From the NCBI GenBank assembly GCA_965237905.1, contig OZ250172.1, forward strand, positions 2,981,784 to 3,013,783: DNA of 32,000 nt, read 5' to 3'. Positions within the stretch are counted from its first letter, which is position 1. Every line of letters begins with the position of its first letter. A program made the translations under genes and the position numbers. The notes beneath the pieces are model-generated. The model saw only the letters and a list, made by a program, of their open reading frames with translations, did not search any database and was not told where the DNA came from. Positions 11,190 through 14,581 of this stretch are shown here, piece by piece. Origin of the DNA: Nitrospinaceae bacterium. Lineage in GTDB: Bacteria > Nitrospinota > Nitrospinia > Nitrospinales > Nitrospinaceae.

Positions 11190-11603
11190 TCATTTTTTTT
11201 CAAACAGGGCATCCAGAATCGGGCATTCGGGTATTACACCGCCTTCACACTGCGAAGAAATTTTAGCCAGTATTTTTTCCAGCTTTTTTAAATCCACAAT
11301 CTTCCGGCGAATATCTCCAAGATGATGAAGTGTGATCTTTTGCACTTGAACGCAGGTGTTTTCGCCACCATCAACCAACCTCAAGAGAGCCCGAATTTCT
11401 TCAAGTGAAAAACCCAGGCCCCTGCCACGGCGTATGAAAACCAGCCGCTTCAGGTGATTTTCACTATAAATCCGATGTCCACCTTCAGTTCGAGGTGGTT
11501 TTGGGAATATCGCAATCTTTTCGTAATAGCGGATTGTCTCAATCTTGCAGTGAGTGAGATCGGACAAAACTCCAATAGTTAATCTTTTTTCTCTATTTTG
11601 CAT
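11190..11603 (-). CDS. MerR-family metal-responsive transcriptional regulator (137 aa; Cys84, Cys119, Cys127)
   Basis: HTH: LTIGVLSDLTHCKIETIRYYEKIAIFPKPPRTEGGHRIYSENHLKRLVFIRRGRGLGFSLEEI. I chose the ATG at 11603, which has AAGGAG 5 nt upstream. The 229-aa ORF-track version would run into the divergent DUF169 gene. Confidence 0.85.
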   Translation of the reverse strand: MQNREKRLTIGVLSDLTHCKIETIRYYEKIAIFPKPPRTEGGHRIYSENHLKRLVFIRRGRGLGFSLEEIRALLRLVDGGENTCVQVQKITLHHLGDIRRKIVDLKKLEKILAKISSQCEGGVIPECPILDALFEKK

Positions 11604-11611
11604 AAAACTCC

Positions 11612-11645
11612 TTGAACCTGTAGTTACTACAGGTTTTATATTATA
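11612..11645. promoter_or_regulatory. MerR-type operator with overlapping divergent promoters
   Basis: A perfect 21-bp palindrome aacctgtagt-t-actacaggtt (11615-11635) fills a 19-bp spacer between TTGAAC (11612-11617) and TATATT (11637-11642) on the + strand. On the minus strand, TTCCCA (11668-11663), 17 bp and TATAAT (11645-11640) face the MerR gene. Confidence 0.6.
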
Positions 11646-11693
11646 AGCGAAAAAATGATTTTTGGGAAATGACTTTAAAACCGGGAGAGGATC

Positions 11694-12404
11694 ATGGACA
11701 AAACACAGATCAATCAAGAAATCGTATCGGCTTTTAAGCTTGGCATCCCTCCAGTAGCAATGGCCTTCGTTGATGGACAACCGGACGGCGTGAGCACTAT
11801 TGAGGGTGAATACCCCTCGTTTTGTACCTTTTGGCGCATGGCTGAGGAAAAAGTATTCTATGCACCGGCGGATAAACATTACAACTGTCCGATTGGAGCC
11901 ATGATATTGGGGATCGAGATGCCCAAAGAGGTGCAGGAAGAACTGGGTGGCTTGGTTGAAAAAATGTGTGAATGTTCTTACCTGTCCGAGGATGAACCGG
12001 CAAATATTCCCACCCTTTCCAAGAAAATGAGCGGCGTGGTATATGGTCCATTGAAAGGCTTTCCGGTGGAACCTGAACTGGTCATGATGTGGTTGAAACC
12101 TTCACAGGCGATGATCTACAACGAGGTTTTAGGTTGCTGTAAATGGTCGGAAAGCATGCAATCTATGGCGTTAGGAAGACCGGCTTGCGCGGTGATTCCA
12201 ACAACCCTGGACAAGTCTCCGTTTGGGATGTCGCTAGGTTGTACCGGAATGCGTACCTTCACCGAAATCAGTGATGAACATATTCTGGCCACACTCAACT
12301 TTAGAGAGATAGATTCGTTCCTGACCAATCTTAAATCTACGGTATCGGCCAATAAAGAGATGGAAGAAATTTATATAAGCAAGAAAAACCAATTCGCCAA
12401 TTAA
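11694..12404 (+). CDS. DUF169 family protein
   Basis: 236 aa. LGIPPVAMAFVDGQPDG...SFCTFWRMAEEKVFYAPADKHYNCPIGAMILGI matches the DUF169 (COG2043) pattern. GGGAGAGG lies upstream of the ATG. Confidence 0.8.
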   Translation: MDKTQINQEIVSAFKLGIPPVAMAFVDGQPDGVSTIEGEYPSFCTFWRMAEEKVFYAPADKHYNCPIGAMILGIEMPKEVQEELGGLVEKMCECSYLSEDEPANIPTLSKKMSGVVYGPLKGFPVEPELVMMWLKPSQAMIYNEVLGCCKWSESMQSMALGRPACAVIPTTLDKSPFGMSLGCTGMRTFTEISDEHILATLNFREIDSFLTNLKSTVSANKEMEEIYISKKNQFAN

Positions 12405-12479
12405 TAATTATCCTTTTATAAAAGCAAGCCGGTTCCTTGGTTTGTTTAAATGAAGTTGTTCCACACGTAGGTTGAGACC

Positions 12480-13112
12480 ATGTCGTTTGTTTATATGAAA
12501 ATCCTTGAATCCCGTCCCGAACGATACGATATAGGAATGGGTCTGTTGACTTTGGGATCGTTGACAAAAATTAAACGGCAAATCGCAGATCATGTTAATC
12601 CCGGAAATCGAGTCCTCGATTTGGGCTGCGGGACCGGAACATTGGCACAAATGTGCATTGAACGAGGGGCGCAGGTGGCTGGGGTAGATGCCAACAGCGG
12701 TATGCTTGAAGTGGCAAAGAGAAATTCGCCTTCTGCAAATTTTCTTAACATCAGCCTTAGCAATCTGGATGAGCATTTAGAGGATGAATCATTCGATATT
12801 ATTTTAAGCACTCTTGCATTCAGCGAATTGACCCGCGCAGAGAGACTTCATGTATTGAAACAAATCAAAAGAATCTTGAAAAAAGAAGGAAAGGTTCTTA
12901 TCGGTGACGAAATAATTCCGGAAAATTTATCCGCCAAATGTTTTTACTATGCTTTCAGATTACCCATGCGGCTTCTTACCTGGATCGTGACCCAAAACAC
13001 CACTAACGCTATTTCTAATTTCGATGATGATGTGCAGCAGGCGGGCATGGAAATAGTCAGCCGCAAGCCGTTTATGTTGGGCATGTTCATCCTTTTGGAA
13101 ATTAAAAAATGA
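12480..13112 (+). CDS. Class I SAM-dependent methyltransferase
   Basis: 210 aa. SAM motif I is VLDLGCGTGTLA, followed by the acidic post-I GVDAN and ILKKEGKVLIGD. The N-terminus ILESRPERYDIGMGLLTLG is UbiE/COQ5-like. Its TGA overlaps the next ATG (ATGA at 13109-13112). Confidence 0.85.
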   Translation: MSFVYMKILESRPERYDIGMGLLTLGSLTKIKRQIADHVNPGNRVLDLGCGTGTLAQMCIERGAQVAGVDANSGMLEVAKRNSPSANFLNISLSNLDEHLEDESFDIILSTLAFSELTRAERLHVLKQIKRILKKEGKVLIGDEIIPENLSAKCFYYAFRLPMRLLTWIVTQNTTNAISNFDDDVQQAGMEIVSRKPFMLGMFILLEIKK

Positions 13113-13978
13113 TCGGTTGGATTAAAGACATCTATCAAACGCTATTTCGGTTTGCCCGGTTTCCGTGCGAACCTGAAACCATTGCTATCGGGAATCCTGC
13201 AAAATACTCGCCGGTTCTTGTCACCTGCAATTTTGATTATACGGTCAGACATTTAAAGAATTATTTGGAAGAAGAGCATATAGATTGCTTTCTTCTGGTG
13301 GTCAATACCAAAGGCACCAACGTCTGGTGCGCGGCGGCTGAAGGTATTTTTACAACCGAAACGGTTCTTGCCCATTTAAAGGTTTATAATGTAAGAGAGC
13401 TTGTTAATCACACCAACTTGATACTTCCGCAATTGTCTGTGGCTGGAGTAAAAAGAAAAGCTCTCAAAGAACATGGCTGGGAAGGAATTTATGGTCCGGT
13501 TTACTTTGCCGACTTAAAGGAATTTTTGGATAACGACTTTCGCAAGACCAAGGACATGCAGGCTCTAGAATATGGATACTGGGAGCGTTTTAAAATGGGT
13601 CTCAGCCATGCGGTTTTCTGCACATTAGTTTGCATACTTCCAATTTTTCTTTTTGCTTCCGAGTTGTGGCTTCAAGCCATCGTTTTAGTCTGGTACTTCG
13701 CTTTCAGTATGCAATTAATTGAACATTTTATTCCCTTCGATAGATTGCTATACAAAGGTCTAGCGCTTTCCTTGCCAATTCTGGTACTGGTGCTGTTTTT
13801 CTCAATAGATACTGTTTTGCAAATCCAGGTAATAATCGGGATTATTGCCTTAGGTGCTTTTATTGGATTCGATGCCCAAGGTCATTCCCATCTCGGGCAA
13901 AATCAGAATTCGGGAAAACTTACTGCTGGGATTTTTGCATTTTTGGCTTTATCTTATGGAGGTTTATTATTGCTATGA
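13109..13978 (+). CDS. HgcA-like corrinoid-binding membrane protein
   Basis: 289 aa. From memory, the N-terminal ~150 aa parallels the HgcA/CFeSP corrinoid domain. GNPAKYSPVLVTCNF compares with GNP..SPVLVTANY. VVNTKGTNVWCAAAEGIFT compares with the cap-helix motif N(V/I)WCA(A/G)GK. LILPQLSVAGV compares with LILPQLGATGV. GPVYFADL is also present. About 5 hydrophobic helices follow (residues ~165-289). ATGA start/stop overlaps link it to both neighbours. Confidence 0.7.
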   Translation: MIGWIKDIYQTLFRFARFPCEPETIAIGNPAKYSPVLVTCNFDYTVRHLKNYLEEEHIDCFLLVVNTKGTNVWCAAAEGIFTTETVLAHLKVYNVRELVNHTNLILPQLSVAGVKRKALKEHGWEGIYGPVYFADLKEFLDNDFRKTKDMQALEYGYWERFKMGLSHAVFCTLVCILPIFLFASELWLQAIVLVWYFAFSMQLIEHFIPFDRLLYKGLALSLPILVLVLFFSIDTVLQIQVIIGIIALGAFIGFDAQGHSHLGQNQNSGKLTAGIFAFLALSYGGLLLL

Positions 13979-14163
13979 AAAAATTTGTGGATTGGGACAA
14001 GATAGAAGAGGAAACGGGTTCTGCCGAGGAAGCCTGTGAATGCACTAGAAGCAAATTACAATCACTGATTGATTTCGTGGTGGAATTATTTCCCAAGAAA
14101 AAGGATTCATCTTGTTGTCCCGAAATGAATGAAAAAGAAAATGGCCAATGCAATGACAACTGA
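13975..14163 (+). CDS. Small acidic Cys-rich protein (62 aa)
   Basis: The ATGA overlap with the upstream stop suggests translational coupling. It contains CEC, a vicinal CC (SSCCPE) and a C-terminal Cys. I recognised no family. Confidence 0.4.
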   Translation: MKKFVDWDKIEEETGSAEEACECTRSKLQSLIDFVVELFPKKKDSSCCPEMNEKENGQCNDN

Positions 14164-14581
14164 TACCTCAAGCTCGGCGAAAACGGTAGAAACTTCTATT
14201 TGTCCTACCTGTGGTTGTTCTTTAATAAGGTTGGGCATCGGTTCGGATCGATGGGCAAAAACTACTTACGCAGGCAAGGAGTATTTCTTTTGTTGCCAGG
14301 GTTGCGCTGATCTGTTCAATCAACAACCTCAAAAATACCTTGAGGAAACCAAGGATTTAGTCGTTTGTCCGACTTGTTTGGCAGAAAAACCGGTGCAGTG
14401 GGCTGTGCGCATGGAAATTGCCGGATGGGAAGTGTTTTTTTGTCGATGTCCATATTGTCCGGACGTATTCCGAAAGGACCCGGACCACTACGTCAAACGT
14501 TTACAAGGTGAGATCGCTTATGATGGTGTGTTCGGTCAGGCCGGATGTTGTTCCACGGACACACAGGGGAACGCTGAGTGA
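14129..14581 (+). CDS. Tandem YHS/TRASH-domain metal-binding protein
   Basis: Two units: CPTCGCS...YAGKEYFFCCQGCADLFNQQPQKY and CPTCLAE...GWEVFFCRCPYCPDVFRKDPDHY. The C-terminal tail carries GCCS. The start is ambiguous (ATG at 14129, 14141 or 14153), and all three overlap the preceding small ORF. Confidence 0.7.
   Translation: MKKKMANAMTTDTSSSAKTVETSICPTCGCSLIRLGIGSDRWAKTTYAGKEYFFCCQGCADLFNQQPQKYLEETKDLVVCPTCLAEKPVQWAVRMEIAGWEVFFCRCPYCPDVFRKDPDHYVKRLQGEIAYDGVFGQAGCCSTDTQGNAE

Follow-up and report, generated by a model that had tools for sequence, protein, structure and literature searches.

In this study, we analyzed a stretch of 32,000 nucleotides from a Nitrospinaceae bacterium (contig OZ250172.1; the whole 32-kb stretch is called the window) with respect to an operon containing the genes of an HgcA-like corrinoid membrane protein and of the S-adenosylmethionine (SAM)-dependent methyltransferase CpaM. 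The operon consists of a minus-strand gene for a MerR-family regulator and five plus-strand genes encoding a DUF169 protein, CpaM, the HgcA-like protein, a small cysteine protein and a YHS/TRASH protein, and all open reading frames (ORFs) are present at the coordinates listed in Table 1. A first-pass annotation of the window had described five co-directional genes behind a MerR-type operator/promoter, ATGA start/stop overlaps at 13109 and 13975, and a cluster lacking a ferredoxin. ORFs, Pfam matches and the promoter sequence confirmed this arrangement, both overlaps are exact, and a six-frame scan of the whole window found no CxxCxxCxxxC ferredoxin motif.

Table 1. Coordinates of the operon features in the window and the evidence for each.
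Feature	Position	Strand	Evidence
MerR-family metal-sensing regulator, 137 aa	11190..11603	-	Pfam PF09278, PF13411, PF00376
MerR-type operator/promoter of operon	11612..11642	+	sequence, inverted repeat, conservation
Divergent merR promoter, TTCCCA-17-TATAAT	11640..11668	-	promoter scan, 10/12 matches
DUF169 protein, 236 aa	11694..12404	+	PF02596 E = 2.6e-22, 80.2 bits vs gathering 27
CpaM, class I SAM-dependent methyltransferase, 210 aa	12480..13112	+	Pfam Methyltransf_25/11
HgcA-like corrinoid membrane protein, 289 aa	13109..13978	+	Pfam CdhD C-terminal corrinoid domain E = 2e-15
Small cysteine protein, 62 aa	13975..14163	+	alignment, selection, narrow distribution
YHS/TRASH protein	14129..14581	+	PF04945 E = 2e-14, residues 44-72

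Locus, host and published background

The gene cluster is a rediscovery of a known Nitrospina locus, because both the cluster and the MerR hypothesis have been published and a model for CpaM already exists in NCBIfam. In Villar et al. (bioRxiv 10.1101/648329), MerR1, UbiE, DUF169 and YHS are drawn around the Nitrospina HgcA-like gene, and control of the cluster by a mercury-induced MerR is proposed. According to papers up to January 2026, no hgcA-like-positive Nitrospina has been cultured, for which reason the function of the HgcA-like gene is still unconfirmed (PMC12874090; supplement of PMC10839748).

The closest homologs of the HgcA-like protein are from Nitrospinaceae (74-89% identity) and form dozens of clusters at 90% identity, mostly from marine metagenomes. 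Purifying selection was found for all four genes tested (DUF169, CpaM, HgcA-like and the small ORF), with dN/dS values of 0.03-0.14 overall, 0.03-0.08 for CpaM and 0.07-0.14 for the small cysteine protein. The G+C content is 0.41-0.43 at positions 11001-14000 compared to ~0.47-0.55 in the flanks, which puts the operon about 6-9 points lower, and the flanking genes are different at every related locus. Together, these two features suggest a mobile, acquired island.

Linkage of CpaM to HgcA-like proteins

The CpaM protein of the window reached 254.6 bits with the existing NCBIfam model NF043040, "corrinoid protein-associated methyltransferase CpaM" (cutoff 180). The statement in the first-pass annotation that methyltransferases are annotated together with HgcA-like corrinoid proteins was thus correct. 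For CpaM itself, no published role was found in the literature searched.

For comparison, 80 loci were collected by a scan of species-representative genomes. In 45 of these, distributed over many phyla, the HgcA(B)-like gene is preceded by a CpaM gene in the same orientation, while CpaM is absent from the other 35. All 45 CpaM genes are immediately adjacent to the HgcA(B)-like gene or fused to it, except for the one of locus L006, where a gap of ~1.8 kb is present. A neighbor-joining tree calculated from the 135-amino acid corrinoid core, without bootstrap support, separated the CpaM-linked from the CpaM-less sequences without exception and placed the protein of the window in the CpaM-linked clade; the two-clade tree of PMC10083202 agrees with this split. 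The CpaM-less sequences have the cap helix NVWCAAGKGT of true HgcA. In this sample of 80 loci and in this tree, linkage to CpaM therefore follows the deep division that separates true HgcA from the HgcAB-like clade. With regard to the synteny that the first-pass annotation had proposed to check, the pairing of CpaM with an HgcA(B)-like gene held in 45 of 45 CpaM-positive loci, and MerR and DUF169 turned out to be limited to the Nitrospina-type loci. The genes for MerR, DUF169, the small cysteine protein and the TRASH protein were found only in L001-L003 (Nitrospina, Nitromaritima and LS_NOB) and, in part, in L004.

In 11 loci (L022, L024, L026, L027, L030, L034, L040, L041, L054, L063 and L065; e.g. 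L041:5197-6822), CpaM and the HgcA-like protein are encoded by a single ORF of 528-569 amino acids lacking a ferredoxin domain, and NCBIfam models confirm both halves. The hosts are Anaerolineae and other Chloroflexota as well as one Poribacteria metagenome-assembled genome (MAG). Directly downstream of the fusion gene, five of the 11 loci carry a separate gene for a 4Fe-4S ferredoxin of 79-94 amino acids. No description of this CpaM::HgcA-like fusion architecture was found in the papers searched.

In the window, the ATGA overlap at 13109 couples CpaM translationally to the HgcA-like protein. The best evidence at hand for a direct action of CpaM on the corrinoid protein comes from the fusions, from the strict adjacency and from this coupling, a point for which no literature was found. 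The proposal of the first-pass annotation that a SAM-dependent methyltransferase loads the corrinoid thereby gained comparative support. The step from SAM to cobalt itself we infer: the linkage and the 11 natural fusions suggest that CpaM methylates the corrinoid of its partner.

Two further observations on the comparative loci were made. In one Thermoanaerobaculales MAG (L014:613-5581), two CpaM-HgcAB-like pairs are arranged in tandem, one with a long CxCPTC/cysteine-rich tail and the other with a short tail. Also, a link to arsenic was considered and rejected: the neighboring ACR3 and ArsR genes belong to the CpaM-less true hgcAB loci and not to this clade.

The HgcA-like corrinoid membrane protein

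The HgcA-like protein consists of an N-terminal corrinoid domain of the type found in the corrinoid iron-sulfur protein (CFeSP) and five C-terminal transmembrane helices, and it has no ferredoxin domain. Whether it would score against corrinoid models had been named as a check on the first-pass annotation; it does so in Pfam (Table 1), and it also matches the CFeSP gamma subunit in the PDB (E = 5e-13). An AlphaFold2 (AF2) model (predicted local distance difference test, pLDDT, 81) consists of a Rossmann-like domain followed by five helices at residues 157-288. The top Foldseek matches were the HgcA model 9a0b_A and then CFeSP large subunits, with a root-mean-square deviation of about 1.9 A over 133 residues.

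With the NCBIfam model HgcAB_like (NF043039), the protein obtained 228.7 bits over profile positions 1-240 of 350. The whole-protein cutoff of 285 is missed because the C-terminal 2x[4Fe-4S] domain is missing: in an alignment with fusion proteins, the protein of the window stops where the 2x[4Fe-4S] tail starts. Neither is there an adjacent HgcB 2x[4Fe-4S] ferredoxin anywhere in the 32-kb window, and Nitrospina sequences have been placed in the fused-HgcAB clade and described as lacking hgcB (PMC10083202; supplement of PMC10839748). The cap helix reads NVWCAAAEG, with the invariant cysteine ligand C74 and with AE in place of GK, and it matches none of the six high-stringency motifs of Capo et al. 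(0/6). From clade and cap helix, we assign the protein to the HgcAB-like clade and not to true HgcA. Of the label given to it by the first-pass annotation, the corrinoid membrane protein stands, but a true HgcA is contradicted by the score with the HgcA equivalog NF040863 (135.7 bits, cutoff 275), the missing GK and the clade.

Regulator and promoter

The merR gene starts at 11603 and not at 11879, to which the long ORF extends. Its product contains a helix-turn-helix domain, a coiled-coil dimerization helix, a cysteine at the start of this helix (C84) and a C-terminal Cx7CP pair (C119, C127). These three cysteines are kept in five regulators, including paralogs of 36-40% identity.

In the operon promoter, the -35 region TTGAAC (11612-11617) and the -10 region TATATT (11637-11642) are separated by a spacer of 19 nt. 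The inverted repeat AACCTGTAGT-t-ACTACAGGTT at 11615-11635 forms a 10+10 dyad with 100% complementarity. This operator is kept in L002 and L003 although the surrounding intergenic DNA diverges. Since the divergent merR promoter overlaps the operator, autoregulation of merR is implied by the arrangement. As predicted from these elements, the operon has a classical MerR-family architecture with a metal-type MerR switch, and the control postulated by the first-pass annotation is borne out by the 19-nt spacer, the perfect dyad and the three-cysteine regulator.

In L001, another MerR paralog of 36% identity, with the three cysteines in common, heads the operon; it is placed co-directionally and has its own dyad promoter, TTGACC-19-TAAGTT. 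A three-cysteine MerR thus appears to have been recruited more than once. With each of the NCBIfam models MerR, CueR and CadR, the regulator of the window scored 113-117 bits. Since it remains below every metal-specific equivalog cutoff, the inducing metal is not assignable.

The related cluster in L004, a hydrothermal "Nitrospirae" MAG, contains CpaM, the HgcA-like gene, the small protein and the TRASH protein at 3385-5451. About 1.9 kb away, a merR-merT-merP unit is located on the minus strand at 347-1500 (MerT E = 2.4e-32), separated from the CpaM cluster by a 373-amino acid ORF lacking a Pfam match. No MerR dyad was found upstream of CpaM in L004; the sole dyad there drives merR-merT-merP.

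DUF169, small cysteine and TRASH proteins

An alignment of 31 DUF169 sequences revealed invariant residues C44, C65, C165, C183 and H62. The AF2 model of the protein has a pLDDT of 92.5, and no solved relative was found in the PDB by fold or by sequence. In the window, DUF169 and CpaM are separated by a gap of 75 nt without a thioredoxin-like insert, while in L002 (1508-1777) and L003 (5053-5343) a thioredoxin_3/glutaredoxin-like CPxC gene is located between them. As a guess, DUF169 could be a redox or metal-handling partner replacing the missing ferredoxin. In two further loci (L081:3330-9427, and L082 with the same genes), a DUF169 homolog of 49% identity precedes a CpaM-HgcAB-like pair, whose HgcAB-like fusion is full-length and above cutoff (336 bits). 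Two B12-binding radical SAM genes, a nonribosomal peptide synthetase (NRPS) gene and an aminotransferase gene flank this module, a neighborhood that hints at a natural-product context for it. Other DUF169 homologs adjoin radical SAM, TauD, YcaO or methyltransferase genes in the absence of HgcA.

The small cysteine protein matched no family in Pfam or NCBIfam. Its N-terminal half contains the invariant motif DW..E..CECT(R)xK, and the variable C-terminal tail usually carries a vicinal CC pair. An exhaustive HMMER search of 1.84 billion proteins yielded 13 representative clusters, all short and standalone. The gene is found in L001-L004; the small ORF of L004 looks frameshifted relative to P0403. 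Conservation and distribution indicate a real, clade-restricted gene, and we recognize the small CEC/CC protein as a putative dedicated partner of the operon. Some tails of HgcAB fusions carry CxCPTC...CC, and an origin of the protein as a detached fusion tail was considered. This was rejected as unsupported, since the homologs found were all short and standalone and none lay within a longer protein.

For the TRASH protein, the conserved start is probably 14153 and not 14129, as the ORFs of L002 and L003 begin at the equivalent of M9. In an alignment with L001-L004, two modules of the form CPxC...C(x)nC are seen, and an AGCC pair is kept at the C-terminus. The first module is significant in Pfam (YHS, 53.7 bits vs 30.3), and the second is a conserved CPTC...CRCPYC pattern below Pfam significance, so that from the tandem TRASH architecture proposed before one module is established as a domain and the other as a cysteine pattern.

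Proposed function and alternative explanations

At a probability of roughly 45%, we favor a module under metal induction whose corrinoid receives a methyl group from SAM and transfers it to a soft metal. A thiophilic metal ion would bind to the three-cysteine MerR, which would activate the promoter with the 19-nt spacer and thereby turn on the five genes. CpaM and SAM would methylate the reduced cobalt of the corrinoid on the membrane-anchored HgcA-like protein, with Cys74 of the cap helix ligating the corrinoid from above. As a carbanion or radical equivalent, the methyl group would then move to a soft metal cation, which the TRASH protein, via its C-terminal CC pair, and the small CEC/CC protein would hand in. 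Hg(II) would be the leading substrate candidate, with Cd, Pb, Tl and Sn also considered. Routing SAM through a corrinoid makes sense because the polarity of the methyl group is inverted, which a direct SAM methyltransferase is unable to achieve, and it is chemically sensible only with an electrophile as acceptor, such as Hg(II). In HgcB and the HgcAB-like fusions, cobalt is re-reduced by a ferredoxin, which is missing in the operon. DUF169 with its four invariant cysteines would be a candidate for supplying the electrons here, and a thioredoxin-like protein is encoded in addition in some relatives. The vicinal CC pairs kept in the C-terminus of the TRASH protein and in the small protein's tail are in line with this reading. 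It is further supported by the operator kept in L002 and L003, the second three-cysteine MerR with its own promoter in L001, the linkage and fusions of CpaM, the corrinoid domain with C74 and five transmembrane helices, the purifying selection on the four genes tested, and the merR-merT-merP unit near the L004 cluster. In addition, expression of the Nitrospina gene in ocean metatranscriptomes and a correlation of gene abundance with methylmercury (MeHg; Rho = 0.85) have been reported in the literature.

Several results weigh against this metal-methylating module. Co(I) is fragile in an aerobe or microaerophile such as Nitrospina, and no ferredoxin or other recognizable reductant is encoded in the window. 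No merA, merT or merP gene is present in the window either, and the metal-specific equivalogs MerR, CueR, CadR and ZntR gave 95-117 bits, all below their cutoffs of 143-168. The GK of the cap helix, found in all verified methylators, is missing. CpaM-linked loci in Chloroflexi and others are accompanied by TetR regulators (12 loci) and ABC-2 exporters. These neighbors, or the B12-binding radical SAM and NRPS genes in other phyla, indicate that the ancestral substrate of the CpaM-HgcAB-like pair may be organic. Furthermore, none of the cultured organisms tested that carry a fused HgcAB-like gene produces MeHg (PMC10087281; PMC10083202), and the protein of the window belongs to the clade of these fusions.

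The same SAM-corrinoid chemistry might also serve a non-metal acceptor, such as an organic or membrane electrophile or radical (xenobiotic, lipid, thiol or natural-product intermediate), and Nitrospina would merely have put the module under a metal- or stress-responsive MerR. This would agree with the TetR and ABC-2 genes, with the surroundings of the module in L081/L082, with the close DUF169 homologs adjoining radical SAM, TauD and YcaO genes without HgcA, and with the inability of tested fused-HgcAB organisms to methylate mercury. We nevertheless regard it as somewhat unlikely, as two different three-cysteine MerR paralogs were independently recruited to the Nitrospina operon, the TRASH and CC-tailed proteins are typical metal handlers occurring only in this subclade, and the L004 cluster is located near merRTP.

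An oxygen-tolerant Hg(II) methylase producing MeHg in oxic and suboxic seawater, as hypothesized in print for Nitrospina, is unlikely in our view, because those members of the clade that have been tested are inactive on mercury. The protein also lacks an HgcB partner and has AAAEG instead of AAGKG in its cap helix. The loop of mercury-responsive MerR proteins is Cx8C, and the regulator of the window has Cx7C compared to Cx8C in the MerR paralogs of L001 and L004, with a score below the MerR cutoff. Oceanic mercury concentrations are femto- to picomolar and thus far below typical MerR thresholds. On the other side, the three-cysteine pattern is MerR-like, the accessory CC pairs resemble those of MerT, MerA and HgcB, and merRTP lies near the L004 cluster. 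The abundance correlation and the metatranscriptome expression mentioned above point in the same direction, as do the same cluster and the mercury-induced control in Villar et al. (10.1101/648329).

Very improbable is a role in cobalt or corrinoid handling or in cofactor maturation, with the membrane protein as binder or importer of a corrinoid, CpaM as the enzyme turning it into methylcobalamin, and the cysteine and TRASH proteins trafficking cobalt or another metal sensed by MerR. In its favor, the CpaM linkage directly implies no step beyond methylation of the corrinoid, cobalt-sensing members of the MerR family exist (CoaR), and a CbiQ-like component of an energy-coupling factor (ECF) transporter is encoded downstream. 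However, CbiQ and both flanks are not conserved next to the operon in L001-L003, no cobalamin riboswitch or other RNA was matched in Rfam at the gathering threshold, and the kept Cys-on cap helix is a catalytic HgcA feature rather than a transport feature.

Taking the metal-methylating module further, the fused-HgcAB branch as a whole might form an enzyme class defined by CpaM, namely SAM-charged, Cys-ligated, polarity-inverting corrinoid methyltransferases, with the Nitrospina version, which lacks a ferredoxin, is controlled by MerR and has DUF169, CEC/CC and TRASH partners, as the long-sought aerobic producer of methylmercury, or of methyl-Cd, -Pb or -Tl, in oxygenated seawater. We consider this extension quite unlikely and offer it as speculation.

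Neighboring genes in the window

The rest of the window is compatible with a nitrite oxidizer, containing an EB_dh/cytochrome c protein and heme c proteins. At 29273-31984, a gene for a multi-heme cytochrome c (415 amino acids) adjoins a convergent gene whose product has two cytochrome c domains and an EB_dh domain (NxrC-like), a pair typical of electron transfer in nitrite oxidizers. The CbiQ-like T-component gene (15680-16423) is located 1.1 kb downstream of the operon, with a convergent gene for an HD-domain protein (14663-15388) in between. It stands alone, without adjoining CbiM or CbiO genes, and is not conserved beside the operon elsewhere. A 1632-amino acid ORF at 22604-27502 has multicopper-oxidase domains only at residues ~1120-1400, and its 1100 N-terminal residues had no Pfam match. 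On the minus strand at 4636-7289, two tandem CNNM/CBS/CorC paralogs (451 and 432 amino acids) overlap by 1 nt, and the 240-amino acid ORF at 3910-4632 combines a TerB (tellurite-resistance-like) domain with a C-terminal DnaJ J-domain.

Significance

MeHg in marine fish is formed largely in oxygenated subsurface water, and to our knowledge all verified mercury methylators are anaerobes. Among the hgcA homologs of the open ocean, the HgcA-like genes of Nitrospina rank first in abundance (10.1101/648329; PMC12874090), and the cluster is the main suspect for MeHg production in oxygenated ocean water. Because of this abundance, the function of the operon matters biogeochemically and for public health and bears on the problem of MeHg in the oxic ocean. 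The analysis implies a minimal system of CpaM and an HgcA-like protein with SAM as donor in place of HgcA, HgcB and methyl-folate, and the natural CpaM::HgcA-like fusions are single-chain constructs for reconstitution. Surveys counting such genes as "hgcA" may count a different enzyme. Beyond the published locus, the analysis adds the clade-defining CpaM linkage, the CpaM::HgcA-like fusions, the apparent repeated recruitment of three-cysteine MerR regulators, the L004 cluster near merRTP, and the small CEC/CC protein as a putative dedicated partner.

Comparison with known systems

With the mer operon (MerR/merOP) and the promoters controlled by CadR, PbrR and ZntR, the window has in common the divergent merR gene, the overlapping promoters, the 19-nt spacer, the dyad and the three-cysteine sensor. 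Unlike in the mer operon, no merA, merT or merP gene is under this control, the regulator is below every equivalog cutoff, and its loop is Cx7C; MerT and an HMA protein occur only beside the homologous L004 cluster. For the CpaM step, reactivation of MetH and the cobalamin-dependent radical SAM methylases, in which SAM methylates reduced cobalt to methyl-Co(III), are analogous in how they work. Membership in these groups is not claimed, and the class I Rossmann fold of CpaM is unrelated.

A CFeSP-type corrinoid domain, a cysteine in the cap helix and five transmembrane helices are common to the protein of the window and to HgcAB of Pseudodesulfovibrio mercurii ND132, a verified mercury methylase. 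The protein of the window differs in having no HgcB, in its cap helix (NVWCAAAEG vs NVWCAAGKG) and in its separate clade. True hgcAB loci also lack CpaM and are associated with ArsR and ACR3, unlike the window. Closer are the HgcAB-like fusions with CpaM (NF043039; e.g. Pyrococcus furiosus), which are the best hidden Markov model match, belong to the same clade and have CpaM immediately upstream. Compared to them, the 2x[4Fe-4S] domain is gone in the window, and the MerR, DUF169, small cysteine and TRASH genes are confined to Nitrospina-type loci. Closest of all is the Nitrospina HgcA-like cluster (Gionfriddo et al. 2016; Villar et al. 2019/2020). In its published figure the 62-amino acid cysteine gene is unnamed and the identity of CpaM and the promoter are absent, but nothing essential differs, and the genes, their order and the host family are the same as in the window.

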